NCBI GenBank assembly: GCA_964453935.1
Contig: CAYVPX010000017.1
Coordinates: forward strand, 1 to 13,721
Direction: 5' to 3'
Length of the DNA stretch: 13,721 nt
DNA from: an uncultured bacterium
Lineage (GTDB): Bacteria; AUK180
A program made the translations under genes and the position numbers. This document shows positions 33 through 13,721 of the stretch, one piece after another; positions within the stretch are counted from its first letter, which is position 1, and every line of letters begins with the position of its first letter. The notes under the pieces were generated by a model. The model saw only the letters and a list, made by a program, of their open reading frames with translations. It did no database searches and was not told where the DNA came from.

Positions 33-2228
33 TCATTGTTTAAAAGTTAAAGGAATATTTTTAGTAGTAGTGTGGCCGGATGCGATTACAATGGTTTCTT
101 TGTAAATATTTCTTTTGGGATTAACTAATCGAAGTTCATGTTTTCCCGTTTTCAATTTTAATTTAGCAATAGGAGTAGGTCCAATTTTTTTATTATCTAT
201 GTAAACATAAGACCATGGTTTGGAATTCACAACAAGGTATCCCCAATTCTTTTTTAATGATATTTTAAAAGAATTTTCTCCACCATTTTTAACAACAATA
301 TCCCTTTCATAAGGTTCAATTGTTTTTCCTTTAACTGAAATATGGTGTTTGCCAATGCTTAATTTTTGTGGTGGAATAGGCGTATAACCTATTTTTCCCC
401 CGTCAATAAATATATTTCCAAAGCCGCCTCTTATTGCGAAACTGCACTTCTCATATTTAATTACTCTCTTTTGAAGTGTATAATTGAACGTTGATCTTGT
501 CTTTTCTCCAAAGGAAATCTTGTTATCTATTGTCTCGTAACCCCTTAATTGTATCCTGAGCAAATGATCTCCGAATTTAAAGGTTTTTGTAATGGGTGTA
601 GTCCCTATAATGGAATTATCTATGACAACTTTTGCACCGGCAGGATCTGTTGTAAATGTAAAAGTTCCTTCACTCTTTTTTAAAACAAATTTAAGTGTTT
701 TTCTCTCATTTTTTTGAACTTTAATACTTTTATTTATGGGATAGTACCCTTTTTTACCAATAAAAAGCTGATGTGTGCCAAGGTCAATTTTTATGGGAGA
801 ATTTATTTTCAAAGTATGATTGTCAATCATTATGGAATTAGGCGGAGGATATACTTTTATTGTATATAATGCATAATTCCATGGTATAAGATCGATCGAA
901 AGACTCTTTTTCTCTCCTTTGTCAATAGAAAAATCATATTTCTTATTTTCATAAAGGTCTTTTTTTATTAAAATTGTATGTTTACCTGGTTTTACTGCCA
1001 TTGAGATAGGGGTGGGATTTTTTACAGGTACTTTATCTATCATTACCTTAGCACCTTTTGGATTTGTATCCAAAGAAAATTTTGTTTTCACATTAAAAAC
1101 CGTAAAATACAATACTGCAACTAATGCAATAACAAAAGCAACAGGTATGAAAATAGGAACGCCTTTCTTTAAACTTTTCTCAATTTTTTCAATGTAATTT
1201 TTGCTTTCTTTATGTTCAGGATCCCAGACCAATACTCTTTTAAAATGTACTATTGCCTCGGAATATTCTGCCTTGCCGTTTTTAAAATATTTTTCACCAA
1301 GATTGAATTCTTCGGTAATTTGTTCCTTCTTAAAATTTTCCCAATATTTTGCCGGATTTTTCAAATATCCTTTAATAATAGATTCATCCGGTGAAATATT
1401 GTATGATGAAAAATAATTTTCAATATCTCTCAATGCACTATCAGCCTCTTTATATCGATTTTCAGGATTTTTTGCAACTAATTTTTTATATATATTAATT
1501 ACATTTTTGGAAATTGGTTCTTTAAGATCAGGGATAGGTAATTCATCATCGGATATTATCTTTGCAATGATAGACATATAATTTTTATCACTTGGATATG
1601 GTTTTTTCCCTGTTAGCAATTCATAAAGCATTATACCGGTAGAAAAAATATCAGTCTGATTATTAACATCCTCACCTTTGGCTTGCTCAGGAGACATATA
1701 AGTTGGGGTTCCCATCAATGTGCCTGTCATTGTTAGATTGGACGCTTCTTCAGATCTTGCCAAACCAAAGTCAACAATCTTTACATACCCATCTTTTGAA
1801 ACAAGTATATTTGCAGGCTTAATATCTCTATGTATAATTCCTTGATGATGAGCGAACGCCAAACCTTTTAATACAAAATATACGAAAAGTACTGCGATTT
1901 GTTCCGGCATTTTACCGCCTAATTTTTTAATGATGAATTTCAGGTCAACGCCTTCAACAAACTCCATTATAATAAAGGATGTTTCTTTTTGTTTAATAAA
2001 TTCATAAATTCTAACAATATTAGGATGTTCTAATTTTGATAATGTCTTTGCTTCCCTTTGAAATCTAATTATAAAGCTTTCATCTTCTACGAGAAATGAA
2101 TGCAATTGCTTAATGGCAACTACACGATCCAAAGAAGTTTGGATTCCTTTATATAATGTAGCCATTCCTCCTTTCCCGACCTTTTTACCTACTTCATAAC
2201 CTGGAATATTGATATTTTTATCACTCAT
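33..2228 (-). CDS. Ser/Thr protein kinase, single-pass membrane protein with C-terminal PEGA-domain repeats
   Basis: N-terminal Hanks-type kinase motifs are present: G-rich loop GKGGMATLYKG, VAIK lysine, HRDIKPANILV catalytic loop, DFGLA, and an APE-like SPEQ. A TPR-like stretch precedes one hydrophobic TM segment (VPIFIPVAFVIALVAVLYFTVF). The C-terminal half holds four or five ~60-70 aa repeats with PEGA-like cores (PKGAKVMIDKV..., DPAGAKVVIDNSIIGTTPI..., IDGGKIGYTPI..., IDNKKIGPTPI...). The start is ATG 2226-2228 (minus strand) and the stop is TGA 33-35. Confidence 0.85.
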   Translation of the reverse strand: MSDKNINIPGYEVGKKVGKGGMATLYKGIQTSLDRVVAIKQLHSFLVEDESFIIRFQREAKTLSKLEHPNIVRIYEFIKQKETSFIIMEFVEGVDLKFIIKKLGGKMPEQIAVLFVYFVLKGLAFAHHQGIIHRDIKPANILVSKDGYVKIVDFGLARSEEASNLTMTGTLMGTPTYMSPEQAKGEDVNNQTDIFSTGIMLYELLTGKKPYPSDKNYMSIIAKIISDDELPIPDLKEPISKNVINIYKKLVAKNPENRYKEADSALRDIENYFSSYNISPDESIIKGYLKNPAKYWENFKKEQITEEFNLGEKYFKNGKAEYSEAIVHFKRVLVWDPEHKESKNYIEKIEKSLKKGVPIFIPVAFVIALVAVLYFTVFNVKTKFSLDTNPKGAKVMIDKVPVKNPTPISMAVKPGKHTILIKKDLYENKKYDFSIDKGEKKSLSIDLIPWNYALYTIKVYPPPNSIMIDNHTLKINSPIKIDLGTHQLFIGKKGYYPINKSIKVQKNERKTLKFVLKKSEGTFTFTTDPAGAKVVIDNSIIGTTPITKTFKFGDHLLRIQLRGYETIDNKISFGEKTRSTFNYTLQKRVIKYEKCSFAIRGGFGNIFIDGGKIGYTPIPPQKLSIGKHHISVKGKTIEPYERDIVVKNGGENSFKISLKKNWGYLVVNSKPWSYVYIDNKKIGPTPIAKLKLKTGKHELRLVNPKRNIYKETIVIASGHTTTKNIPLTFKQ

Positions 2229-2234
2229 AACGGG

Positions 2235-2263
2235 ATTTTACCATATTTTTATTAAAAAAACAA
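2235..2263 (-). promoter_or_regulatory. Putative sigma70 promoter for the kinase gene: -35 TTGTTT, 17-nt spacer, extended -10 TGgTAAAAT, ending 6 nt before the ATG (possible leaderless transcript)
   Basis: The minus strand reads cTTGTTTttttaataaaaataTGgTAAAATcccgttATG. The -35 is at plus coordinates 2258-2263 and the -10 at 2235-2240. There is no Shine-Dalgarno between the -10 and the ATG. AT-rich DNA produces such hexamers by chance, so confidence is low. Confidence 0.3.
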
Positions 2264-2321
2264 GTTTTTTGTATAAAATTAACATCCCCCCATTTTTTTT
2301 AAGCATAATCATAGATCCCCA

Positions 2322-2575
2322 CTAAAGTGAATAAATTGTCAATAGGTCGCTCCCAAAGATAAAATAACTTGCTATCATTAATAAAACATTCATCGTTTTT
2401 AATCTGTTATAATCGTGATATTGCATTGTTTCATAATGTAATTCCGTTTTTATTAATCTGTGATATTCCTCTATTGTCCACCTATAGCCATATCCTTCAA
2501 ATATTGTGTCCCTGGCTTCTTTTAGTGTTATACCATCAGGTAATTTTGATAAATAGTAACTATAACAATGCCTTT
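2322..2575 (-). pseudogene. Fragment of an IS4/IS5-family DDE transposase (C-terminal ~85 aa only, no start codon); IS remnant
   Basis: The minus strand has an open frame from 2642 to stop TAG 2322-2324 with no ATG/GTG/TTG start. It translates as ...HCYSYYLSKLPDGITLKEARDTIFEGYGYRWTIEEYHRLIKTELHYETMQYHDYNRLKTMNVLLMIASYFIFGSDLLTIYSL*. This contains an exact Y-x2-R-x3-E-x6-K (YREK) signature (Y-G-Y-R-W-T-I-E-E-Y-H-R-L-I-K, plus coordinates ~2448-2492). Compare IS10 ...YSKRMQIEETFRDLK. The composition is protein-like, unlike the AT-junk frames nearby. The upstream catalytic region is absent. Confidence 0.5.
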
Positions 2576-2598
2576 TTAAAAAATTTAAATAGATAACT

Positions 2599-2626
2599 TT
2601 GAGAAAAATTATTAAAAAGTTATAAT
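2599..2626 (+). promoter_or_regulatory. Putative sigma70 promoter of the lipid-module operon: TTGAGA, 16-nt spacer, TATAAT
   Basis: TTGAGA at 2599-2604 and TATAAT at 2621-2626 form a near-consensus pair. It lies inside the IS remnant and points into the DedA gene. The predicted TSS is ~2633-2635, at the second in-frame ATG (2634). Confidence 0.3.
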
Positions 2627-3251
2627 GATATTTATGGCTTATTTAGTAGAAAATTTCCTTAACCATTTTCACACGCTTTATTTGTTTGGGATAATTTTAA
2701 TTTATCTATTTTTACCTTTTGGTTTGGCAATTTCAGAAGAGATTTTGACTATTATAATAGGTATTTTGGTGGGCAGGGGTTATGTCTCACCTTTTTCAGG
2801 AATTGTTGGCACTGTTTTAGGTGTTTATCTATCTGACATTATCTGTTATTTTATGGGAGTTTTAGTCGATAAATCATTAAAATTACCTATTTTGAGCAAA
2901 ATATATAAAAAAAAGGATAGAATCAGTATATATGATAAATTTCATAATAAATTCAAAGGCGCTTTTATTTTAATAATAAAATTTCTGGTAGGCCTTAAAT
3001 TCTGGATATATGTAGGTGCAGGATACAAAAAGTTCAATTTAAAAACATTTTTAATTGAAGATTTTTTTGCTGCTATAATTTTTAGTCTAATTTATTTAGT
3101 TATTGGTTTTTACTTTGGGTCCCATTTGAATGAAATTTTAGTATTTTTAAATAATTTTAAATACTTACTTATTGCTTTAGTTGTAATAGGGATCACAATA
3201 TTTATTTTAAGGAGAAAAAAACATGAGAAAGACACATCCCATTTATCTTGA
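2625..3251 (+). CDS. DedA/VTT-family (SNARE-associated) integral membrane protein
   Basis: The protein has multiple TM segments. DedA-like motifs include LFLPFGLAISEEILTIIIGILVG (F-x-P..E..L..G core) and a second re-entrant-like element KFKGAFILIIKFLVGLKFWIYVGAG (K/RF-x-P/G-x-R/K-x6-AG pattern). The annotated ATG 2625 sits inside the putative -10 box, so ATG 2634 (MAYLV...) may be the real start. The 3' end overlaps the next gene by 29 nt. Confidence 0.55.
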   Translation: MIFMAYLVENFLNHFHTLYLFGIILIYLFLPFGLAISEEILTIIIGILVGRGYVSPFSGIVGTVLGVYLSDIICYFMGVLVDKSLKLPILSKIYKKKDRISIYDKFHNKFKGAFILIIKFLVGLKFWIYVGAGYKKFNLKTFLIEDFFAAIIFSLIYLVIGFYFGSHLNEILVFLNNFKYLLIALVVIGITIFILRRKKHEKDTSHLS

Positions 3252-4326
3252 TAAAAATGAGAATTTATACGGTCCTTCACACCTCGTTTATGAGTTCGTG
3301 CTAAAAATTAATAAGGAAATTTTTTCCTATTATTCAAGAAATTCAATTAACAGAATTTCTGAAAGCATTTTAAAATATTTGAAATATGATGCCAATAAAA
3401 TTATAATTTCCTATGGTGGCGAAGACCTTTTATGGCAAATTACAAATTTTATCCATGGTGAAGGGGAAAAGAAGCTACTTATTGCAGATAATTCGTGGTG
3501 GTATTATAGAAAAATTGCTGAAAAGGTAGGACTGAAAATAAAAACTTATAAAACTGTAAAAAAGGGAGATTATTGGGAAAATGGTTATGAAAATTTACTG
3601 AAAACTTTGAAAACCTATGATGGGAAATATGTTTTACTATGTTCGCCAAATAATCCTACAGGCGAGAGGCTTTTGAAAAATGAACTTTCAGAAATATTAA
3701 AAACTCATGAGAATAAATTATTTGTACTTGATGAAGCATATTGGGGGTTTGACTTTGATGAGGATGGAAGAATTGAGGATTATAATGAATTTTTAGAGGA
3801 ACATCCAAACCTGATTATATTACGAACCTTTTCAAAATTTTTTGCACTGGCTGGTGTTCGCATTGGTTTTGCTCTTTACGGTAAAAAGTGGCAAAAATTT
3901 AATGATTCCAATTATCGTTATCTTGGATATAATAAATTTTCTGAAGAAATTGTTATGAGAACATTGAGATCTTGCAAATATTATCATAAAATTGCCAGAA
4001 GAATTATGAAAGATAGAGAAAAAACTTATAATTTACTTAAAAACTTTGATGCTTATACTCCATTTAGGACATATACAAATTTTATAATTGTTAAAATAAA
4101 TAATTTAAATTTGAAGGAAGATTTAAAAAAAGCACTCACTAAAAAAAATATTGTAATTAAATGGTTTTCAGATGATGATAAAAATATGAAAGATTTTGTC
4201 AGGATAACCATTGGCAAAACTACACAAATGAAAAAGCTATGGAAAATATTTTTAAAAACAGCATTAAAGTATGAAAAAGACAAAAAGAATATTCCAATTA
4301 TTTCAAAGATCATTGAAGGGGAATAA
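3223..4326 (+). CDS. PLP-dependent class-I/II aminotransferase fold enzyme of the HisC/CobD subfamily (histidinol-phosphate aminotransferase / threonine-phosphate decarboxylase-like)
   Basis: Motifs: DKNENLYGPS (HisC N-terminal NENPxGPS), CSPNNPTGERL (NPxNPTG), VLDEAYWGF (IDEAY), and ILRTFSKFFALAGVRIGFAL (RTFSKAxGLAGLRxGY with the PLP lysine). A good RBS AAGGAGA sits 7 nt upstream of ATG 3223. Sequence alone cannot separate transaminase from decarboxylase chemistry. Confidence 0.8.
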   Translation: MRKTHPIYLDKNENLYGPSHLVYEFVLKINKEIFSYYSRNSINRISESILKYLKYDANKIIISYGGEDLLWQITNFIHGEGEKKLLIADNSWWYYRKIAEKVGLKIKTYKTVKKGDYWENGYENLLKTLKTYDGKYVLLCSPNNPTGERLLKNELSEILKTHENKLFVLDEAYWGFDFDEDGRIEDYNEFLEEHPNLIILRTFSKFFALAGVRIGFALYGKKWQKFNDSNYRYLGYNKFSEEIVMRTLRSCKYYHKIARRIMKDREKTYNLLKNFDAYTPFRTYTNFIIVKINNLNLKEDLKKALTKKNIVIKWFSDDDKNMKDFVRITIGKTTQMKKLWKIFLKTALKYEKDKKNIPIISKIIEGE

Positions 4327-5089
4327 AGCTGAAGAGTTTTTTGATAAACTTTTTTTCCGCCCAATTTCTTTTATTGTTGCATATTCTTTTTATAAGTTAA
4401 ATATATCACCGAATATAGTTACAATTTTATCAGGGTTTTCTGCTTTATTGGCATTTTTCGGGTTTTATAAGAATCAATTAATTTTAGGGTTTATATTTTT
4501 CTTTTTATCTTATTTGTTTGATCTTGCCGATGGTCAGGTTGCTCGCCTTTCAAAAAAGAGTTCACCCCTTGGCCGTATATTGGATGGTTATGTGGATATC
4601 TTTTCCTATATATGTGTCGCTTTTGGATTATCTTTTTACTTATTCCACCAAAACCATACATATACAGGATTCATATTATTTACTATACTCGGAATCTCTC
4701 AATCACTACATACATTACTATTTGATGGATTGAGAAATGAATATTTATGCTTAACGAAAAATTTACAAAATTGTAGAGAATACATGTTAAAAATGGACAT
4801 TCAAGAAGAAAAAGCAAAAAAGATGGCAAATTGGTATAATAAATTACAATGCATGATATTTAAAAAAATTGTTTTATTAGAAAAATTAGATGATAAAAAA
4901 CGTGATTTTTATATTTTATTCAACTCTTTTTTAGGAAGTGGAACTAAATATTTTTTCCTTTTTTTAGGCATTATTTTTCATAAAATTACGATTACCTTAT
5001 GGTTTTTAATCATTATTACCAATATTATTTTTATTATCTCTTATTTATGGGGAGCACATTATGAGAATAATTATACTGGCAGCAGGTAG
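4271..5089 (+). CDS. CDP-alcohol phosphatidyltransferase family integral membrane enzyme
   Basis: The signature D-G-x2-A-R-x8-G-x3-D-x3-D is present as FDLADGQVARLSKKSSPLGRILDGYVDIFSY. An N-terminal PNxxT element (ISPNIVTILSG) and several TM helices are also present. The only available start is ATG 4271, which overlaps the upstream gene by 56 nt. Confidence 0.8.
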   Translation: MKKTKRIFQLFQRSLKGNKAEEFFDKLFFRPISFIVAYSFYKLNISPNIVTILSGFSALLAFFGFYKNQLILGFIFFFLSYLFDLADGQVARLSKKSSPLGRILDGYVDIFSYICVAFGLSFYLFHQNHTYTGFILFTILGISQSLHTLLFDGLRNEYLCLTKNLQNCREYMLKMDIQEEKAKKMANWYNKLQCMIFKKIVLLEKLDDKKRDFYILFNSFLGSGTKYFFLFLGIIFHKITITLWFLIIITNIIFIISYLWGAHYENNYTGSR

Positions 5090-5777
5090 AGGACGAAGGC
5101 TTTCTCCTTTAACTGATACTACACATAAAACGCTTTTAAAAATTGGTGAAAAAACAATTTTGGAGCATACAATTGATAATTTTAAATTTTATAAAATACA
5201 TGATTTTCAATTTGTACTCGGTTATAGAGCAAATGATATCATTGATTTCCTGGATAAAAAGGGTATAAATTATTCATATGTAATAAATGATATCTGGGAT
5301 AAAACCAACAATATATATTCGCTATATCTTGCATTAAAAGAAGGTGATTCAGAAGATATTATTTTAATTGACAGTGATATCTTTTTTTCATATAAAATAT
5401 TGGAATCACTGTTTAGGCAAAAAGAAACTGCTTTTTTAGTCAGAAAAGGAAAATTAACAGAAGAGGATATGAAGGTTGTCATAAAAGATAATAGAATATT
5501 AAAAATATCAAAAGAAATACCTCTAAAAGAAGCAAGTGGTGAATCAATAGGTATTGAATATTTTACTAAAAAAGATTATGCTCTTCTTAAAAGTGAATTA
5601 GGGGATGTGATTGAAAATGAAACAAATGGAAAAAATCTTTTTTATGAGTATGCTTTTCAACGATTAATAGATAAAAAACTCATATCTCCCTATTCAATAA
5701 TCATAAATGATTTTGCCTGTGAAATAGACACGAGAGAAGACCTTGATTTTGCAAAAAATATTTTAAAAAAAAATTAA
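5061..5777 (+). CDS. LicC-family nucleotidyltransferase (CTP:phospho-alcohol cytidylyltransferase-like)
   Basis: N-terminal NTP-binding loop MRIIILAAGRGRRLSPLT. The sequence aligns well to S. pneumoniae LicC through the family-specific blocks FVLGY, TNNIYSLYLA (LicC YNNFYSLYL) and C-terminal EIDTREDL (LicC EIDSVQDY). RBS GGGGAG lies 6 nt upstream of the ATG. The start overlaps the upstream gene by 29 nt. Confidence 0.85.
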   Translation: MRIIILAAGRGRRLSPLTDTTHKTLLKIGEKTILEHTIDNFKFYKIHDFQFVLGYRANDIIDFLDKKGINYSYVINDIWDKTNNIYSLYLALKEGDSEDIILIDSDIFFSYKILESLFRQKETAFLVRKGKLTEEDMKVVIKDNRILKISKEIPLKEASGESIGIEYFTKKDYALLKSELGDVIENETNGKNLFYEYAFQRLIDKKLISPYSIIINDFACEIDTREDLDFAKNILKKN

Positions 5778-5910
5778 AAAAGATATGAAAAATACAGTAT
5801 GTCGAGACAACAGACAGATTTTATACTTAATTGGGTTTAAAAAGTAAAAAAGTAAATCCCAGCCCCTTAAAAAAATTTGATTTTTTTTAAAAAATAAATT
5901 AAAATAAAAT

Positions 5911-6555
5911 ATGTTAGACAAAGAGAAAATAGACCAATTGGTAGAAAAAGTTAAGAATGAATTTCCAAAGGGAATGTCACAAAATAATAATAAATTAATT
6001 ACTTTAGAGGTATCGGCTCACCATTTACATATTTCAAGGGAACATCTTGATATACTTTTCGGCAAGGGTTATGAACTTACATCTATTAAAGCTCTCTCTC
6101 AACCCGGACAGTATGCTGCAAAAGAAACAGTACGGATCGTGGGACCCAATGGCGAATACGATAATGTAAGAATATTGGGACCAGTAAGAAGTGAAACACA
6201 GGTTGAGATTGCAATGACCGATTGTTTCATTATTGGTATTGAACCGGTTATTAGAATGTCAGGTGATATTAATGGAACACCTGGTTGCATTATTTGGGGA
6301 CCAAAAGGGCATCTTGAATTAAAAAAAGGGGTCATTGTCGCAAAAAGACACTTTCACTGCACCCCGCAAACGGCAGAGAACCTTGGTTTAAAGAACAATG
6401 ATGTTGTTTCCGCTGAAATAAGCGGAGAACGAGGCGGTATATTGAGAAACATAATTGTTAGGGTTAGTGATAAATATGCAGATGCCATTCACCTTGATAC
6501 AGATGAAGGCAATGGTCTTGGTGTCAAGACCGGTGATCGTGCATATATTAAATAA
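5911..6555 (+). CDS. pduL: PduL-type phosphotransacylase (phosphate acetyl/propanoyltransferase) with N-terminal encapsulation-peptide-like helix
   Basis: The protein is colinear with Salmonella PduL across the conserved blocks: HHLHIS / HVHL-like, [69 protein letters not shown]. It has the two-repeat PduL architecture. The N-terminus [18 protein letters not shown] is a predicted amphipathic helix. Confidence 0.9.
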
Positions 6556-6569
6556 AATCGGAGGTAGAT

Positions 6570-6854
6570 ATGGAAGCATTAGGTATGATTGAAACAAAAA
6601 GTTTGGTTGCATGTATTGAAGCTGCAGATGCAATGGTAAAAGCAGCAAAGGTACAGCTTGTTGCTTATGAAAAAACTGGCGGCGGTTATGTAACAGCTTT
6701 GGTAAGAGGCGATGTAGCGGCTTGTAAAGCAGCAACAGATGCAGGTGCCGCAGCAGCACAAAGAGTTGGCGAATTGGTAAGTGTTCATGTAATTCCAAGA
6801 CCTCATCAGAATCTTGACGGAATTTTCCCTATCAAAGCTAAAAGCAACAAATAG
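6570..6854 (+). CDS. BMC-H hexameric shell protein (PduA/EutM/CcmK family, Pfam PF00936-type)
   Basis: [79 protein letters not shown] is near-identical in pattern to PduA ([52 protein letters not shown]). RBS GGAGGT is upstream. Confidence 0.95.
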
Positions 6855-6893
6855 AGGAAGTGGGATCTTTTTCCCACCACATAAGGACTTATT

Positions 6894-7163
6894 ATGTTAA
6901 TTGGAAAAGTTATCGGTAGAGTTGTTGCTACAAGGAAGGAAGAAAAACTTCATGGAGCAAAATTATTGGTGGTTCAGCCGGTTGGTCTTAATATGAAACC
7001 GCAGGGAGCACCCATTGTTTGCATTGATTCTGTAGATGCAGGATTCAAGGAAACCGTTCTCATTGTTCAGGGTTCTTCCGCTCGTTTGGTAACAAATCAA
7101 GGAAATAACCCTGTCGACGCTGCAATAGTTGGAATCATTGATTCCATTAAAATTGACGATTAG
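6894..7163 (+). CDS. BMC-P pentameric vertex protein (EutN/CcmL/PduN family), paralog 1
   Basis: 89 aa. N-terminal GKVIGRVVAT, then KLLVVQPV and D-x-VDAG-x-x-ETVLIVQGSSAR, as in EutN/PduN. Confidence 0.9.
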   Translation: MLIGKVIGRVVATRKEEKLHGAKLLVVQPVGLNMKPQGAPIVCIDSVDAGFKETVLIVQGSSARLVTNQGNNPVDAAIVGIIDSIKIDD

Positions 7164-7171
7164 GGAGAGAG

Positions 7172-8602
7172 ATGATGGATAAAAATGAGATTGAGAAATT
7201 GGTAAGAAAGGTCGTAGATGAATTCGTTAAGGAGGGCGTAGCAATTTCAAATTCGCAAAATGCTATTTCATCAAAAGAAGGAATATTTTCAAATATTGAT
7301 GATGCTATTACGGCAGCAAGAATAGCACAGAAGGACATTGAAAAACTTCCCCTTGATATAAGAAGCAAAATCGTTGACAATATGAAAAAGGTGGCACTTG
7401 AAAATGCCGATATGCTTGGAGAAATGGCTGTTGAGGAAACTGGAATGGGCAGAATGCCGGATAAAGCGGACAAGGTAAGGTTAGTTGCTAATAAAACACC
7501 TGGGGTTGAAGATGTAAAACCCATGGTCTATACGGGTGATCACGGAATGGTACTTGAAGAAAGAGCACCTTACGGGGTCATAGGAAGTCTTACACCTTCC
7601 ACCAATCCCCCATCTACGATTGTAAATAATGGGATCAGTGCCATTGCCGGTGGTAATGCCATTGTTTTTAATCCGCATCCGGCGGCAAAGAATGTTTCAA
7701 ACAAGACCGTTCAATTAATGCATCGTGCAATTATTGATGCAGGGGGACCAAAAAACCTTATCTGCAGTATTGAAACGCCTTCACAAGAAAGTAGTGAAAA
7801 GTTAATGAAACATCCGTATCTTAATCTACTCTTGGCAACAGGCGGGGAGTTCATGGTACATCTTGCAATGAATTCGGGAAAAAAGACCATTGTAGGAGGT
7901 CCGGGAAATCCGCCCTGTCTTGTTGATGAAACGGCGGACATATCCAAAGCCGCAAAGGATATCGTCATCTCTTCATCATTTGATAATAATGTGGTTTGCG
8001 TCCTTGAGAAGGAGGTCTTTGTCGTAGAATCCGTTGCAGATCAACTTATCTCTGAGATGAAAAAACACAATGTTTATGAAATAAAGGGTGACGATATAAA
8101 AAGGGTTACAGATCTTTTAATTGCAAAAGATGAGGGCACGGGTTACAGGGTTCCAACTATTAATAAAAAATATGTTGGAAAAGACCCATATATTATTCTT
8201 AAAGATGCGGGTATCACTATTCCTCAGAATACACGGCTTGCCATTATGCAGGTTAATTGGGACCATCCCATGGTGCAGGTTGAGCAACTTTTACCCGTAC
8301 TGCCCATTGTAAGGGTAAAGGACTGGGAAGATGGAGCCATGCATTCTCTTGAAACGGAACATCATTACAGGCACACCTTTATAATGCATTCAACAAATAT
8401 TGATAGATTATCATATATGGCAAGAGAATGTGATGCATCTATCTTTGTAAAGAATGGTATGTCCCTGCAAGGTCTCGGATATATGGGCGAAGGACCTACA
8501 ACAATGACCATCGCTACTCCGACAGGAGACGGTATAACAACAGCAATGACCTTTACAAGACGCAGACGCTGTGCATTAATAGATAGGTTCAGGATAGTAT
8601 AA
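7172..8602 (+). CDS. CoA-acylating aldehyde dehydrogenase (EutE/PduP family) with N-terminal encapsulation-peptide-like helix
   Basis: The EutE/PduP-type catalytic region FDNNVVCVLEKEVFVVE contains the active-site Cys, and the characteristic C-terminus TFTRRRRCALIDRFRIV is present. The N-terminus MMDKNEIEKLVRKVVDEF closely resembles the PduL N-terminus. RBS GGGAGAGAG is upstream. Confidence 0.9.
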   Translation: MMDKNEIEKLVRKVVDEFVKEGVAISNSQNAISSKEGIFSNIDDAITAARIAQKDIEKLPLDIRSKIVDNMKKVALENADMLGEMAVEETGMGRMPDKADKVRLVANKTPGVEDVKPMVYTGDHGMVLEERAPYGVIGSLTPSTNPPSTIVNNGISAIAGGNAIVFNPHPAAKNVSNKTVQLMHRAIIDAGGPKNLICSIETPSQESSEKLMKHPYLNLLLATGGEFMVHLAMNSGKKTIVGGPGNPPCLVDETADISKAAKDIVISSSFDNNVVCVLEKEVFVVESVADQLISEMKKHNVYEIKGDDIKRVTDLLIAKDEGTGYRVPTINKKYVGKDPYIILKDAGITIPQNTRLAIMQVNWDHPMVQVEQLLPVLPIVRVKDWEDGAMHSLETEHHYRHTFIMHSTNIDRLSYMARECDASIFVKNGMSLQGLGYMGEGPTTMTIATPTGDGITTAMTFTRRRRCALIDRFRIV

Positions 8603-8610
8603 AGAGTACA

Positions 8611-9927
8611 ATGCAATTAAATGATATTCAAAAAGCAGGGATTATTGGGTGTGGCGGCGCAGGTTTTCCCACATTCTTCAAACTTAAAAGTGAGGTTGAA
8701 ACACTCATCATAAACGGTGCAGAATGTGAACCGCTTCTGGAAACAGACAAAGAAATATTAAGGAACCATTTGGATATGGTTATTGAGGGGATTAAGACAG
8801 CAAAAGAACTTATAAAAGCGAAAGAGGTTTTTTTGGGTGTTAAGGAATACTATAAAGATCTTATTGAATATCTTAAAGAGAATGAAGAGGGATTCAAGGT
8901 ATTTCCCCTTGAGAATATCTACCCCATTGGTGATGAACAGCTTCTTGTTAAGGCTATAACAGGGAAAATAATCCCCGAAGCAGGGCTACCTCTTGATGTT
9001 GGAGTGGTGGTTCAAAATGTTGAAACAATCTATCATTTGGGAAGATTAAAAAAAGAAAACGAGAATTTTACTCATAGATTCGTTACTGTTAACGGCGAGG
9101 TTGAATTCCCATTTGTTGCGTATGTGCCCATTGGAACACCTGTTTCAGAATTATTAAATATTGCGAAACCCAAGATCCTATTAACGGATGCCAAGATAAT
9201 TGACGGCGGACCCATGATGGGTAAATTTATTACAGAGGAAGATTTTATAAAAAAAACAACCTCGGGTATCCTGGTAATTCCCAAGGAGCATAAATTGATC
9301 AGACAAAGGACACGGGATATTGACACCATAAAAAAGATATCAAGATCTGCCTGTATTCAGTGCAGAAGATGTACGGATTTTTGTCCGAGATATTTGAACG
9401 GTCACAGAATCGAGCCGCATAAGTGGATGAGAAATCTTGCTCTTGGAGAGGTACTTCCCAATGAAATGGCAAATATTTGTAGCGAGTGCGGTGTTTGCGA
9501 ACTTGTAGCATGTCCCATGGATATTTCCCCTAGATTGGTGGCACAAATAATGAAAAAACAGATGGCAGATAATGGTATGAAAAATGAGCATTATCACAAT
9601 AAGCCGGAGAAAAGCCGCGATTTTGCTGAATTAAGGAAGGTCAATACATTGAAATTAATGGAACACCTTGATATTGATCAATACAATGTTCATCCACACC
9701 TTGAGAAATTTACCATTGAGCCGGAAACAGTAAGAATATATTTGAACCAGCATATTGGAAAACCGGCAGAATCCAATGTAAAGATCAATGATAAAGTGAA
9801 AATAGGTGATGTTATAGGAAAATGCAAAGAAGGTGAGCTTTCCGTTTATTACCATGCCTCTATCTCAGGTAAGGTGGTATCTGTTGAAAATAATTATATT
9901 GATATAATAAATGAAAAAAATAGTTGA
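8611..9927 (+). CDS. PduS-like RnfC/NuoF-family flavoprotein with two [4Fe-4S] ferredoxin motifs
   Basis: The N-terminus AGIIGCGGAGFPTFFKL...INGAECEPLL matches the PduS/RnfC NADH-binding signature (GxGGAGFP, AECEP). Two CxxCxxCxxxCP motifs are present: CIQCRRCTDFCP and CSECGVCELVACP. The length of 438 aa is similar to PduS. Confidence 0.85.
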   Translation: MQLNDIQKAGIIGCGGAGFPTFFKLKSEVETLIINGAECEPLLETDKEILRNHLDMVIEGIKTAKELIKAKEVFLGVKEYYKDLIEYLKENEEGFKVFPLENIYPIGDEQLLVKAITGKIIPEAGLPLDVGVVVQNVETIYHLGRLKKENENFTHRFVTVNGEVEFPFVAYVPIGTPVSELLNIAKPKILLTDAKIIDGGPMMGKFITEEDFIKKTTSGILVIPKEHKLIRQRTRDIDTIKKISRSACIQCRRCTDFCPRYLNGHRIEPHKWMRNLALGEVLPNEMANICSECGVCELVACPMDISPRLVAQIMKKQMADNGMKNEHYHNKPEKSRDFAELRKVNTLKLMEHLDIDQYNVHPHLEKFTIEPETVRIYLNQHIGKPAESNVKINDKVKIGDVIGKCKEGELSVYYHASISGKVVSVENNYIDIINEKNS

Positions 9928-9938
9928 GGTAAGTAGTT

Positions 9939-10499
9939 ATGACTTTTAGAAATGCCATTGCCCTTGTTGAATTTAACAGTATTGCACATGGGATCGCCTT
10001 TGCAGATGAGATGGTAAAGGGCGGCAATGTTAAGCTTCTTGACAATTATCCCACATGTCCGGGGAAACATATTGTCATTGTTTCCGGAGATACTGACGCA
10101 GTAAAACAAGCGGTAAAAAATGGATTTACGGTAGGGAAGGATTTCGTTCTTGAGTACTCCATCATCCCAAATGTCCATGAAGATGTGTTAAAAGGAGCAA
10201 TGGGGATCCCATCTGTTTCATTGAATGATATAGATGCCATTGGTATCGTTGAGAGCTTTTCAATAATAAAATGTGTAGAGGCTGCAGATATGGCTTTGAA
10301 GGAATCTCAGGTAAAATTAGTGGACATGCGGCTGGGAAAAGCACTTGGTGGAAAAGCATACTTTATTCTCACCGGAGCGGTTGGAGCAGTAAAAAGCAGT
10401 GTAATGGCAGCAGTGGAATTCTTGAAGGAAAATACAAATTTGGTACAGTTCAAGATCATACCTGCTCCGGCAGATGAACTAAAAAAAAGTCTTTTATGA
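9939..10499 (+). CDS. BMC-T tandem-BMC-domain shell protein, PduT-like, with the conserved pore Fe-S cysteine
   Basis: 186 aa with two BMC domains (ALVEFNSIAHGIAFADEMVKGGNVKLL... and IGIVESFSIIKCVEAADMALKESQVKLVDMRL...). The N-terminal half aligns to Salmonella PduT, including the TICPGK motif, seen here as YPTCPGKH. Cys40 (nt 10056-10058) corresponds to the [4Fe-4S] ligand of PduT. RBS GAGGTAAG is upstream. Confidence 0.85.
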   Translation: MTFRNAIALVEFNSIAHGIAFADEMVKGGNVKLLDNYPTCPGKHIVIVSGDTDAVKQAVKNGFTVGKDFVLEYSIIPNVHEDVLKGAMGIPSVSLNDIDAIGIVESFSIIKCVEAADMALKESQVKLVDMRLGKALGGKAYFILTGAVGAVKSSVMAAVEFLKENTNLVQFKIIPAPADELKKSLL

Positions 10500-10509
10500 G
10501 AGGTAAAAA

Positions 10510-11124
10510 ATGAGAATTGCAATAGGAAGTGATCACGGTGGATTTGAATTAAAAAGAAAATTGGTCCCATTTATTGAATCCTTGGGGCATGAGGTCAGTG
10601 ATCTTGGAACATACACACCCGATTCTGTGGATTATCCCGACATTGCTGCAATTGTTGCATATGAAGTCGCAAAGGGTAATTATCCTTTTGGTATACTTAT
10701 CGATGGAGCCGGTATTGGCTCTGCCATTGCTGCAAATAAAATAAAAGGTATTCGTGCAGCCACGGTGAACAATATTTTCATGGCACAAACCGCAAGGGAG
10801 CACAACAATTCAAATATACTGGTTTTGGGAGCAGGACAAACAGGTGAAAATCTAATAAAAGATATTATCAAAATTTTTTTAAGTACACCATTTGCAGGTG
10901 GGAGACATGAAAGAAGAGTTAATAAAATCAGTAAATTAGAAGAAGCAAATCTTAAAGAGATTGAGAAATATACCAGTCCACCTAAAAAATTGATAACAGC
11001 CGACGATATTCGTTCGGCAAGTAGAAATGGCGAAAACATTCTTTATTACGTGAAGGGTGCCATTATAACTGAATTGGCTAAAGAAACTGCATTTGATCTT
11101 GGAGTGAGGATCGTAGAAAGATAA
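10510..11124 (+). CDS. RpiB/LacAB-family sugar-phosphate isomerase (ribose-5-phosphate isomerase B-like) fused to a ~60-aa C-terminal extension
   Basis: Residues 1-~140 align end-to-end with E. coli RpiB (IAIGSDHGGF, DYPD, GILIDGAGIGSAIAANKIKGIRA, REHNNSNILVLGA, GGRHERRV). The position of E. coli catalytic Cys66 is Asp65 here (GAT 10702-10704). Residues ~141-204 (SKLEEANLKEIEKYTSPPKKLITADDIRSASRNGENILYYVKGAIITELAKETAFDLGVRIVER) are extra relative to canonical ~150-aa RpiB. The stop overlaps the next start (TAATG). Confidence 0.85.
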   Translation: MRIAIGSDHGGFELKRKLVPFIESLGHEVSDLGTYTPDSVDYPDIAAIVAYEVAKGNYPFGILIDGAGIGSAIAANKIKGIRAATVNNIFMAQTAREHNNSNILVLGAGQTGENLIKDIIKIFLSTPFAGGRHERRVNKISKLEEANLKEIEKYTSPPKKLITADDIRSASRNGENILYYVKGAIITELAKETAFDLGVRIVER

Positions 11125-11390
11125 TGTTCTTGGCAAAAGTAATTGGCAAGGTTGTTCTATCACATTCCGAAGAGCAGATGCCTAAGTATAAACTTTTAAT
11201 TATTCAACCCATTAATGAGAAAGGAGAAAATACTGATGTTCCTCAAATCTCAATGGATATTGTGGGTGCCGGACCCGGGGAAACGGTGCTCGTTACCATC
11301 GGAGATGAGTCAATGCTCGGTTTTTTACCTGAACAACCGCCTGGGGATCTTTGCATTATAGGCATTGTTGATGACATAGGATTGGAATAA
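11124..11390 (+). CDS. BMC-P pentameric vertex protein, paralog 2
   Basis: 88 aa. AKVIGKVVLS...KLLIIQPI...DIVGAGPGETVLVTIGDES has the EutN/CcmL fold signature. It is TAATG-coupled to its flanking genes. Confidence 0.85.
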   Translation: MFLAKVIGKVVLSHSEEQMPKYKLLIIQPINEKGENTDVPQISMDIVGAGPGETVLVTIGDESMLGFLPEQPPGDLCIIGIVDDIGLE

Positions 11391-11668
11391 TGTATATTGG
11401 CAAGGTCATAGGTTCTGTTACCGTCTCCAAAGGAGAACCCGGACTAAAAGGCAAGAAACTCATAATCATAATGTTCCTTGATGCTAATGGCAAGGAAACG
11501 GGTAAGTACAATATTGCTGTAGATAAAATGGGTGCCGGATTTCATGAAACCGTATTATTGGTAAAGGGTAAAGAAGGAGTTGACATGCTTACAGGTTATA
11601 AACCGCCGGCAGACCTTACTATTTGCGGTATTATTGATCTTATAAATCATCCGAAAGATGGGAAATAA
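11390..11668 (+). CDS. BMC-P pentameric vertex protein, paralog 3
   Basis: 92 aa. GKVIGSVTVS...KKLIIIMFLD...DKMGAGFHETVLLVKGKEG. It is divergent from paralogs 1 and 2 but shares the pattern. Confidence 0.8.
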   Translation: MYIGKVIGSVTVSKGEPGLKGKKLIIIMFLDANGKETGKYNIAVDKMGAGFHETVLLVKGKEGVDMLTGYKPPADLTICGIIDLINHPKDGK

Positions 11669-11671
11669 ATT

Positions 11672-12322
11672 ATGGATTTAGGTTTTTTTATTTTTTTGAC
11701 AATTTTTGTTCTTATAACAGCAATTATTTTTATTGCAAGGAAGGGAGGGTTCAAAACAACCGAGAAAATTAAAGAGTTGTGGAAAGCAAACGGAATGGAT
11801 ATTCGCTTACTCGAACAAAAATTTCTGGGTATCTCCAAAAAGAAAGTAATTGCAATAAAAAGAGAACAAAAGTACTTAATAGTGGGAATGAACTGGGTGG
11901 TTAGTTCAGGAAGGAATCAAATACCATATTGGGGTATCGGTATCTTTACACATAGCGAGGTCATGAAATTTTCAATAACAAGGAGAAGACCTACTTTTTT
12001 AGATGGGAAGAGGATCAAATTAAATGATCCCGAACTTGATAAGATGCTCGTTTTAAAATGCAAGGATGAGGACTGGTTCAGAATGTACTTTAACGAAGGA
12101 GTGTTAATGGAATTTGCTCATACCATTCCCAAAAATACAATAATATCCTATGAAAAGAAATCACCTGTGAATATAAATAGTATTTTAGAGGAATTGGCAT
12201 ATGATCCCTACGAGCCCTTTATTATGGTAAAAAGAAGAGAGATCGCAGCATACTCTAAGGTATTTAATGAAACAATCGGTGTTGCTGAAAAACTCGCAAA
12301 AATATTTTTACATATTAGATAA
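11672..12322 (+). CDS. Hypothetical N-terminally membrane-anchored protein, tightly coupled to the BMC operon
   Basis: 216 aa. One N-terminal TM helix (LGFFIFLTIFVLITAIIFIA) is followed by a ~190-aa soluble domain with no motif I recognise. It starts 4 nt after the BMC-P3 stop. Its AT-rich codon use matches the flanks. Confidence 0.6.
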   Translation: MDLGFFIFLTIFVLITAIIFIARKGGFKTTEKIKELWKANGMDIRLLEQKFLGISKKKVIAIKREQKYLIVGMNWVVSSGRNQIPYWGIGIFTHSEVMKFSITRRRPTFLDGKRIKLNDPELDKMLVLKCKDEDWFRMYFNEGVLMEFAHTIPKNTIISYEKKSPVNINSILEELAYDPYEPFIMVKRREIAAYSKVFNETIGVAEKLAKIFLHIR

Positions 12323-12538: not shown

Positions 12539-13721
12539 TTATCTCGTTACTATTTTAAAAAATATCAGATTATTGGATGAAAATAAAGTTTTTGAGCTAT
12601 ATTGAAAATTATGATTTTTACGATTTCTGTAATGATAGTTTAAATATTTTTCTAAAATCGATATAAGTTTTTTCCCTATATCTGAGTTTTGTGTAACTAT
12701 TACAATATCCTTTCTGGTAATATTTTTCATTAAGTCTCTTCCTGAACTAAACCTATAATTTTTTAAAGTTTTATAATAAAATTCAGATCGTATTGTCCAA
12801 CCTATTGGTATAATTTTATATTTTTCAAAATTTTGGTATTCATGTAAAGGGCTAGCACCCTTTAATTGTTGCCACAAAGGGGCAATAGATAGAAATATTT
12901 TATCCGGGCCATAAATAGAATTAAATTTTCTAACTGAACTTTGAGCCATTTGGAATTGATTACTTGACCGAACATTTAAATTTTTTAAATTAATAAATCT
13001 TTTAATGCTTATTGGTAGCATTAAAATAATAAGAATAAGAAATATAAATTTTTCAATTTTAATATTTTCATACTTTGTAATTTTAAATGAAAAAATAATT
13101 AATCCCAAAACTAGAACATATAAAGGGTAGTTAATTCTTGTTCGAGATCTGATCATTATAATAAGGAAAATACCAATGAGGAGATAAATAAAATATGAAA
13201 TAAAAAAAATAATGATCCTTTTATTTATTTTTATTTTCCAAGACCTGATGATATTATATAGAAAAATTAAAATTGCAAATATACAAGGGAAAATAATATA
13301 TAAATAATTTCTCAAACTAACAATTGTTTTTTTTATTTCGCCCCACCAAATAAATTTTAAAAGAGGAGTTTGCCCTTTTGAATTTATTTCAAGGAAATTT
13401 TTAAATTTTTCAATGGAAAAAATTGTTTCATCATGTAAAAAAGAATACATTCCTAAAATATAATCTTCCTTAATCCAATTAACTGATGATAGTGCCATGG
13501 GGGTATTTTTATTAAAACCACCTCCAAAAAAATCGTAAAATTTTACTCTAGCATTATTATATTTTATAAATTTTGAATCTCTAAATTGTCCATTGATATT
13601 TGAAACAACAATTATTGTAATTAACAATACTCCAAAAATGATAAAAAATCGTTTCCAATTTTTAAATATAAAAAAGGTTAAACATATCGGTAATATATAT
13701 ATAGAAAAATATAATATTAAT
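12539..13721 (-). CDS. Polytopic integral membrane protein of unknown function (5' end outside window; the annotated start at 13627 is an internal TTG)
   Basis: The minus-strand frame stays open from stop 12539 to the window edge (…LILYFSIYILPICLTFFIFKNWKRFFIIFGVLLITII…). The codon at 13625-13627 is TTG, and hydrophobic segments continue upstream, so the gene is probably truncated by the window. There are at least 6 TM segments and a C-terminal soluble region. No family recognised. Confidence 0.5.
   Translation of the reverse strand, partial: LILYFSIYILPICLTFFIFKNWKRFFIIFGVLLITIIVVSNINGQFRDSKFIKYNNARVKFYDFFGGGFNKNTPMALSSVNWIKEDYILGMYSFLHDETIFSIEKFKNFLEINSKGQTPLLKFIWWGEIKKTIVSLRNYLYIIFPCIFAILIFLYNIIRSWKIKINKRIIIFFISYFIYLLIGIFLIIMIRSRTRINYPLYVLVLGLIIFSFKITKYENIKIEKFIFLILIILMLPISIKRFINLKNLNVRSSNQFQMAQSSVRKFNSIYGPDKIFLSIAPLWQQLKGASPLHEYQNFEKYKIIPIGWTIRSEFYYKTLKNYRFSSGRDLMKNITRKDIVIVTQNSDIGKKLISILEKYLNYHYRNRKNHNFQYSSKTLFSSNNLIFFKIVTR

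Follow-up and report, generated by a model that had tools for sequence, protein, structure and literature searches.

The 13,721-bp window analysed here (contig CAYVPX010000017.1 of assembly GCA_964453935.1, from an uncultured bacterium; a complete NCBI contig of 32% GC) carries, between the divergent genes for a Ser/Thr kinase and a VTT/DedA protein, what is very probably the non-functional relic of a single copy of an IS4-family insertion sequence (IS), trimmed by two later deletions. The relic lies on the minus strand at ~2280-2570 and comprises ~290 bp of an element of ~1.6 kb. It differs from an intact IS in having one terminal inverted repeat (IR), no equivalents of the catalytic aspartates D105 and D193 (numbered as in P0002, the best-matching full-length transposase), no start codon and a reading frame that changes ahead of the C-terminal tail. 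Because one end, both aspartates and the start codon are missing, it cannot produce a transposase or be mobilised.

The relic is first apparent as an open reading frame (frame A, Table 1). The initial annotation of this DNA had described a 106-codon minus-strand frame without a start codon, and translation of 2642..2322 bears this out: no ATG, GTG or TTG occurs in frame until codon 73, so that frame A has no usable start. The probability that a frame of this length stays open by chance in the 26%-GC DNA found here is ~3e-5. The Pfam profile DDE_Tnp_1 (PF01609) matches the fragment through its last 44 positions (E=5.9e-5, 23.3 bits, gathering cutoff 23 bits), while the best NCBIfam model is IS4_3 (E=4.7e-8) and the IS4 and IS701 models of NCBIfam match in the C-terminal catalytic block. 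An exhaustive phmmer search of 1.84 billion representative proteins returned 76 matches at E<1e-3, headed by P0002 (438 aa; E=4.1e-20, 62% identity), and all 76 place fragment residues ~25-97 on residues ~285-366 of proteins of 420-450 aa. A profile built from 38 full-length relatives scores 95.7 bits on the fragment region. Consistent limits are obtained with tblastn, which yields a constant core at 2355-2564, and at the DNA level, where the catalytic segment aligns without gaps to IS positions 1126-1332 and the alignment to one element locus (L005) extends to 2577 at most. A word-indexed homology search with the fragment gave no matches, whereas the exhaustive HMMER search succeeded.

The retained core contains the complete Y-2-R-3-E-6-K (YREK) signature that the initial annotation had reported (YGYRWTIEEYHRLIK, window 2492..2448, minus strand), with Y51, R54, E58 and K65 encoded at 2492-2490, 2483-2481, 2471-2469 and 2450-2448, respectively. 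The top three PDB sequences are all Tn5 transposase, and the signature falls on Tn5 residues Y319, R322, E326 and K333; as single-sequence comparisons these matches have E near 1 and are each non-significant. The core keeps all family-invariant residues of its stretch, and its identity to the family (median 43%, nearest 66%) resembles that of intact members among themselves (median 43%, nearest-neighbour median 62%). Being as family-like as the intact members, it points to a copy killed by deletions and not by point decay. The last ~85 residues of the frame had been taken for the C-terminus of a DDE transposase; the DDE assignment stands, but the segment is internal to the protein (~296-366 of 420-450 aa). 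The loss of the N-terminal part is likewise real, its extent being ~62-67% (some 270-295 of ~438 residues) and not three quarters as had been proposed. The columns of D105 and D193 fall in the missing part, and the third catalytic residue, E327, is kept together with YREK.

The true C-terminal tail of the transposase lies closer to the kinase gene, in a second frame. Frame B reads ...SKLFYLWERPIDNLFTLVGIYDYA* and is out of frame with the catalytic segment. The tail (PIDNLFTLVGIYDY) aligns with that of the relative P0079 (PPANLFTIAGLDEY), and of the 6,810 six-frame 36-aa windows of the contig it is the one that best matches the final 30 aa of the closest clade, with a summed Smith-Waterman score of 130 compared with 100 for the next independent locus and 60 +/- 8 for the null. 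The adjoining IR has a 15-nt core, TCCCCCCATTTTTTT (2285-2299), which recurs unchanged in the IR (CTGCCTTCCCCCCATTTTTTT) of the closest full-length element and is unique in the window on both strands. This core is the best local match of the 3' part of the element to 2229-2354, and its score is reached by 0-4 of 1,000 dinucleotide shuffles. The outer IR bases (TAACAT) resemble the CAAGCAT of the element at L008 (CAAGCATCCCCCC), and the window copy as a whole shows the layout of the family (stop codon, A-run, [T/C], G5-6 and ~7 nt). The IS boundary is placed at ~2280, 51 bp upstream of the kinase ATG. A search for terminal repeats and target duplications, as the initial annotation had advised, recovers the right IR and yields neither a left IR nor a convincing duplication.

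Homology in frame A stops at 2355 and homology in frame B begins between 2373 and 2352, whereas the relatives have ~70 aa between the two points. The IR core, the TAA and the frame-B tail therefore indicate a frameshifting internal deletion at ~2352-2373, and frame A meets its TAG because this deletion shifted the frame. The deletion, the C-terminal tail with its native stop and the intact-looking right IR had all been missed by the initial annotation. Coordinates of these and other features are collected in Table 1.

Table 1. Features of the relic and of the flanking genes (window coordinates)
Feature	Position	Strand	Remarks
Frame A open reading frame	2642..2325	-	106 sense codons
TAG closing frame A	2324..2322	-	Not the native stop; relatives run ~70 aa further
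Catalytic segment, frame A	2355..2564	-	Residues ~26-97 of the frame = ~296-366 of P0002; glutamate of the DDE triad and full YREK
Upstream part of open frame	2565..2642	-	First ~25 codons, no significant IS similarity; includes VTT start (2625 or 2634)
Internal deletion junction zone	2352..2373	.	Frameshifting; ~150-170 bp (~45-55 codons) lost, residues ~367-410 of relatives
Transposase extreme C-terminal tail, frame B	2352..2302	-	ERPIDNLFTLVGIYDYA; may start up to 2373 (SKLFYLW...)
Native TAA stop, frame B	2301..2299	-	Merges into the A-run of the IR as in full-length relatives; other frame than frame A
Right terminal inverted repeat	2280..2300	-	Reads TAACATCCCCCCATTTTTTTT outside-in on the plus strand
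Candidate kinase promoter, TTGTTT-17-TAAAAT	2263..2235	-	-10 ends 6 nt before ATG 2228; below scan threshold
Candidate VTT-operon promoter, TTGAGA-16-TATAAT	2599..2626	+	11/12 matches; -10 ends 7 nt before ATG 2634
Ser/Thr kinase gene with PEGA repeats	33..2228	-	ATG at 2228
VTT/DedA gene	2625 or 2634..3251	+	Divergent from kinase

Another arrangement, in which the element would have decayed collinearly through the TAG to ~2237 with 'LILYKKL' standing for the F[IV]YYKL of the family, was considered and rejected. Extension of the tblastn and DNA alignments in this direction requires gaps and proceeds only at low identity, 'LILYKKL' would fall outside the IR, the best local match in the region is the IR core itself, and the frame-B tail, TAA and IR reproduce the end architecture of the family.

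At its other edge the relic is truncated at ~2565-2577. Upstream of this point (2565-2700) no DNA similarity to the IS was detected, 742-956 of 1,000 shuffles scoring as well, and protein similarity in the first 25 codons of frame A (2642..2565) and further upstream does not rise above a six-frame null, whose top windows lie elsewhere; these codons would stay open by chance ~8% of the time. No other IS pieces occur anywhere in the window, and no second IR was found in it on either strand, whether sought as the exact core with up to 2 mismatches or as a degenerate family motif. Candidates for a left end are unconvincing (an AT-rich 11/13 match at 2642-2654 and 'AAGCCAT' at 2641-2635, with no C-run), and, with the left end lost, the window retains no recoverable target duplication.

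The architecture of the parent can be read from intact relatives, whose limits were set by comparing copies with different flanks. The transposase P0078, 88% identical to P0002 and annotated 'transposase [Candidatus Dependentiae bacterium]', occurs in the Candidatus Dependentiae metagenome-assembled genomes (MAGs) GCA_023133555.1 and GCA_030630935.1, where copies of its element lie at contig ends or form stand-alone contigs of ~1.6 kb. The full-length element measures 1,573 bp and has 21-bp terminal inverted repeats, CTGCCTT(A/C)CCCCCATTTTTTT, with ends that begin 5'-CT. Intact relatives have a single transposase ORF (438 aa in the 1,573-bp element, 410-459 aa among the relatives) without a frameshift. 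The stop codon of the transposase abuts the right IR in the full-length elements (L004-L009), and the distant members L006-L009 share the right-end layout of stop, A-run, [T/C], G5-6 and ~7 nt. From a 12-mer, caatttttacta, shared by the L001 left flank and the L002 right flank (two assemblies combined), we infer a 12-bp target duplication for one copy; at L005, L007, L008 and L009 no clear duplication was seen. A second, diverged IR-like end, inverted and ~20 bp past the right IR, is present at positions 1852-1934 of L005 (TTTCCCCATTTTTTTTTCATATTAATATCGAATTACATCA) and resembles the terminus of a further copy, as would result from nested or adjacent IS insertions. The clade as a whole (P0002-P0090; loci L001-L009) has at least 76 representatives at the 50% clustering level.

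The nearest full-length proteins, P0078 from Dependentiae and the metagenomic P0002, are 62-64% identical to the relic over the retained 70 aa, and their elements share with it the IR core (15/15 nt), the abutment of stop codon and IR, and a low GC content (28-32%). They differ from the relic in being intact and multi-copy-looking where it is a fragment, and at 62-64% protein identity they are not its direct parent. No closer copy of the relic was present in the collections searched.

Family placement follows De Palmenaer et al. (2008; PMC2266710), in which IS4 elements have a DDE transposase without frameshift, a complete Y-2-R-3-E-6-K and direct repeats of ~7-13 bp, IS701 elements have an incomplete YREK (the tyrosine usually absent) and direct repeats of exactly 4 bp, ISH3 has Y-2-R-3-E-3-R and IS1634 lacks the arginine; its criteria for IS4 also include an element size of ~1.15-1.8 kb with terminal IRs and a single ORF without programmed frameshift. 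The fragment has DDE_Tnp_1 homology and, together with 49 of 50 full-length relatives, a complete YREK, while the single ORF, size and IRs are those of the intact relatives; as to the target duplication, the one putative 12-bp repeat, from two combined assemblies, stands beside four copies with no clear duplication. The family profile matches the transposase of Tn5/IS50, the IS4 reference, from the second Asp to the E/YREK block (E=4e-12), and the two share the DDE_Tnp_1 catalytic core with YREK in register. IS701 models and plasmid-borne IS701 transposases appear among the weak matches of the fragment and its relatives, and IS701 elements have a similar size (1.4-1.55 kb), but the YREK is complete here and the one putative repeat is 12 bp, not 4 bp. 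IS5 models were absent from the NCBIfam matches of the fragment (E<=10) and of the relatives, whose 410-459 aa compare with ~300 aa for IS5. Judged on sequence by the criteria of PMC2266710 the parent clade is IS4, and not IS701 or IS5; the window copy is only a fragment of such an IS4 element. Of the IS4/IS5-type label given initially the IS4 half is upheld by the Tn5 profile match, the YREK and the length of 420-450 aa, and the IS5 half falls with the lack of any IS5 model.

Within IS4 the clade stands apart. The relatives score 30-67 bits with the curated NCBIfam IS4 models (NF033590, NF033591, NF033592 and NF049925), below cutoffs of 115-250, with IS4_3 the top NCBIfam model for most clade members. 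P0002 itself falls below the Pfam DDE_Tnp_1 gathering score, and 49 of 50 relatives match PF01609. Compared with plasmid proteins, P0002 has a single match of 23% identity, and hence no named IS can be attached to it. Since no curated cutoff is reached and the nearest plasmid homologue is 23% identical, the clade forms a divergent, uncurated branch. The IS10, IS50 and ISPepr1 subgroups have 5'-CT ends similar to those of the parent element, yet none of the subgroup end consensuses of PMC2266710 matches the parent IR, with its C5-6 run followed by a T-run overlapping the stop codon. We tentatively raise the possibility of an uncatalogued IS4 subgroup, with complete YREK, a ~430-aa transposase, ~21-bp IRs, the C5-6/T-run core over the stop and ~12-bp duplications, in low-GC uncultured lineages such as Candidatus Dependentiae, whose relic here may serve as spacer or regulatory DNA between divergent promoters of leaderless type.

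These observations suggest the following history. A parent element of ~1.5-1.6 kb, encoding one DDE transposase of ~430 aa between IRs of ~21 bp built around a C-run/T-run core, would have inserted ~51 bp upstream of the Ser/Thr kinase gene and in its orientation, at a junction that appears to survive with the right IR. A later deletion would have taken the left ~1.1 kb, including the left end and the first ~270-295 codons, together with some adjacent DNA. This event would have removed both catalytic aspartates, the DNA-binding N-terminus, the start codon and the promoter, and joined the IS interior (~2565-2577) to DNA just upstream of the VTT/DedA gene. A second deletion in the 3' part (~150-170 bp) would have shifted the frame of the E/YREK segment (2564-2355) relative to the tail and stop (~2352-2299), leaving a relic that is now probably only spacer DNA between two divergent transcription units. 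The suggestion that the locus preserves the footprint of a past insertion, or of a deletion that removed most of an IS, has thus proved sound in the form of a 5' truncation with one retained end.

Several points weigh against this reconstruction. The internal-deletion model depends on short matches, namely the 15-nt IR core and the ~17-24-aa tail, and a small hidden Markov model (HMM) of the C-terminal tail gave no reportable score for the window tail, for which the Smith-Waterman rank test alone was clear. In its outermost 5-6 bases the IR departs from the closest full-length element and agrees only partly with a more distant member. Neither the exact junction nor the size of the internal deletion can be fixed, because no parent exceeds 66% identity. 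As no genome with an empty site came to light, anatomy is the sole source for the order of insertion and deletions given above, and some residual probability attaches to a regulatory role for the relic, weighed below.

A sister genome was found by exact-sequence look-ups (ENA sample ERZ23499380). Its contig L010, with the kinase gene followed by tmk, holB and a peptidase M19 gene, aligns without gaps to window 2524..115 at 97.5% identity, L011 aligns to window 2700..5658 at 99.2%, and L012 carries the bacterial microcompartment (BMC) locus described below; gene order is the same as in the window on all three contigs. The relic, including its internal deletion and IR, is common to the sister, with 1 mismatch in 296 intergenic bases (at 2298, in the A-run of the IR), a difference equal to the background divergence nearby (~0.3%). 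Since the sister shares it, the relic is inherited. The comparison with related genomes that the initial annotation had called for therefore produced one genome with the same arrangement and relic, and no empty site. Neither the GTDB species set nor the JGI metagenomes yielded an empty-site genome: contig scans of the GTDB species set with the VTT protein and the kinase gave no more distant relative of the locus, a JGI metagenome scan with the fragment returned one marginal locus and no more distant relative of the locus, and the VTT protein retrieved no relative but itself in a homology search.

The sister assembly breaks across 2525-2699, with L010 ending at the equivalent of 2524 and L011 starting at 2700, an interval that covers the truncated edge of the relic along with the VTT start and promoter. 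This break could stem from coverage, strain heterogeneity or a structural difference. Divergence from the sister is patchy, reaching 5-10% in the C-terminal (PEGA) half of the kinase gene (115-438 and 715-1015) and in the first half of the VTT gene (~5% in 2755-2993) compared with ~0.3% elsewhere, a pattern in the alignments that suggests either recombination tracts or a mosaic of strains. No alignment to the sister is obtained for the last ~80 bp of the kinase gene.

Candidate promoters for the two flanking transcription units (Table 1) both lie outside IS-derived DNA, that of the kinase beyond the IS end and that of the VTT operon beyond the detectable 5' edge, positions that fit a relic tolerated as spacer DNA. 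A promoter scan gave 5 sites where 4.0 were expected, not above chance or shuffles. An AT-rich near-palindrome at 2244-2281 (TATTTTTATTAAAAAAAC / GTTTTTTGTATAAAATTA; 83% complementary, 2-nt loop) lies directly outside the IR and overlaps the candidate kinase promoter. The operon-first genes for the kinase, VTT and PduL (2229-2240, 2621-2633 and 5898-5910) have no Shine-Dalgarno sequence and a TAAAAT/TATAAT -10-like box 5-7 nt before the ATG, and the operon-internal genes for the aminotransferase, BMC-H and the aldehyde dehydrogenase (3205-3222, 6555-6569 and 7160-7171) have a clear GGAGG or AAGGAG. From these motifs, leaderless mRNAs are suggested for the operon-first genes. No RNA family or structured element was found by Rfam over 2150-2750, and the antisense ORF at 2369-2596 has no Pfam match.

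The start of the VTT gene used by NCBI is 2634, as inferred from the 205-aa product. Downstream of VTT follow, in order, genes for an aminotransferase, a CDP-alcohol phosphatidyltransferase and a nucleotidyltransferase, and then the BMC locus, which encodes PduL, BMC-H, three EutN proteins, an aldehyde dehydrogenase, an RnfC-like flavoprotein, a tandem BMC protein and an RpiB-type sugar-phosphate isomerase. With two flanking ORFs (11672-12322 and 12539-13627), neither of which has a Pfam match, the BMC locus takes up window 5911-12322 and 12539-13627, and its sister counterpart is L012; we presume that the locus resembles microcompartment loci of the sugar-phosphate type. The GC content is 28-32% in the kinase gene, 24-29% in the lipid module and ~40% in the BMC module, with a step from 26% to 40% at ~5,900. 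The BMC module (~5,900-12,300) stands at 37-42% against 22-30% on both sides (kinase, lipid module and right end of the contig), and the GC boundary falls between the nucleotidyltransferase gene (end 5777) and PduL (start 5911), not at the IS relic.

The null posed with the initial annotation, that the similarity arose by chance in a spurious AT-rich frame, is already refuted, and we assign it a negligible probability. What might be said for it is that the Pfam score is just 0.3 bits over the cutoff, that the word-indexed search was empty and that the single-sequence PDB matches have E near 1. These points are outweighed by a best E of 4e-20 in 1.84 billion proteins with all 76 matches co-located, the 95.7-bit family profile, the gapless DNA alignment, the retention of every invariant residue and a matching IR that adjoins the fragment. 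The absence of a significant match to any transposase, which would have counted against the proposal, is clearly not what the DDE_Tnp_1 comparison gave. Granted a genuine IS origin, the relic might instead retain both ends and be non-autonomous yet mobilisable, resembling a miniature inverted-repeat transposable element (MITE). One good IR and the 11/13 match at 2642-2654 to DNA just outside it, a possible target duplication, would be expected of such an element. That match, however, is AT-rich, low-scoring and inside the VTT coding sequence, the window has no second IR-like sequence, and neither the window and the sister contigs nor the metagenome and genome scans yielded further copies, so that a MITE-like derivative is already disfavoured and in our judgement highly improbable.

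The two remaining alternatives accept a dead IS copy and concern its consequences. Exaptation of the relic as regulatory DNA, supplying a promoter, an operator or the spacing for the divergent kinase and VTT promoters, would be in keeping with its filling ~290 of the ~335 bp between the candidate core promoters, with the single base in 296 that differs in the sister and with the reading frame still being open. The neighbouring DNA is equally little diverged (~0.3%) and so gives no sign of extra constraint on the relic, both candidate promoters sit outside IS-derived DNA, promoter-like matches are no commoner than in shuffles and no RNA family or structured element is present; we consider exaptation unlikely. 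Slightly less probable still is that an IS-associated rearrangement or horizontal transfer brought the VTT/lipid/BMC block next to the kinase neighbourhood, with the truncated, VTT-side end of the relic as the mark of the join. In its favour, the junction on the VTT side is secondary and non-transpositional, the IS interior meeting unrelated DNA without an IR, the sister contig shows core genome on the kinase side, with tmk, holB and peptidase M19 downstream, and both the ~5% sister divergence in 2755-2993 and the sister assembly break across 2525-2699 lie near this junction. Nevertheless the lipid module is close in GC to the kinase side, the compositional step lies between the lipid and BMC modules and the sister has the same gene order on all three contigs. 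Nothing links the junction to acquisition of the modules, and the initial suggestion that the relic is a scar relating to how they arrived is left without support. Furthermore, IS-mediated rearrangements normally keep an IS end at the new junction, which is missing here, and plain deletion trimming an intergenic IS explains the anatomy without transfer. On the other side of the relic, towards the kinase gene, the junction is of the ordinary insertion type and keeps the IR.

The relic is an ordinary genomic fossil of a divergent IS4-family clade, which belongs in annotations as a transposase pseudogene or single-IR IS remnant and not as a gene, and it should not be used as evidence for acquisition of the BMC or lipid modules. 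It records the past presence, in a low-GC lineage not otherwise sampled, of an IS4-family element that has its closest relatives in Dependentiae MAGs. It also provides a worked example of how the decay of an IS (5' truncation, frameshifting internal deletion and retention of one end) can be rebuilt without a close parent copy. With the clade below the NCBIfam cutoffs and P0002 short of the gathering score of Pfam, MAG annotations will probably label such elements only 'transposase' or 'hypothetical protein', and as the parent clade lies under all curated NCBIfam IS4 and IS701 cutoffs, a dedicated model would better annotate such genomes.

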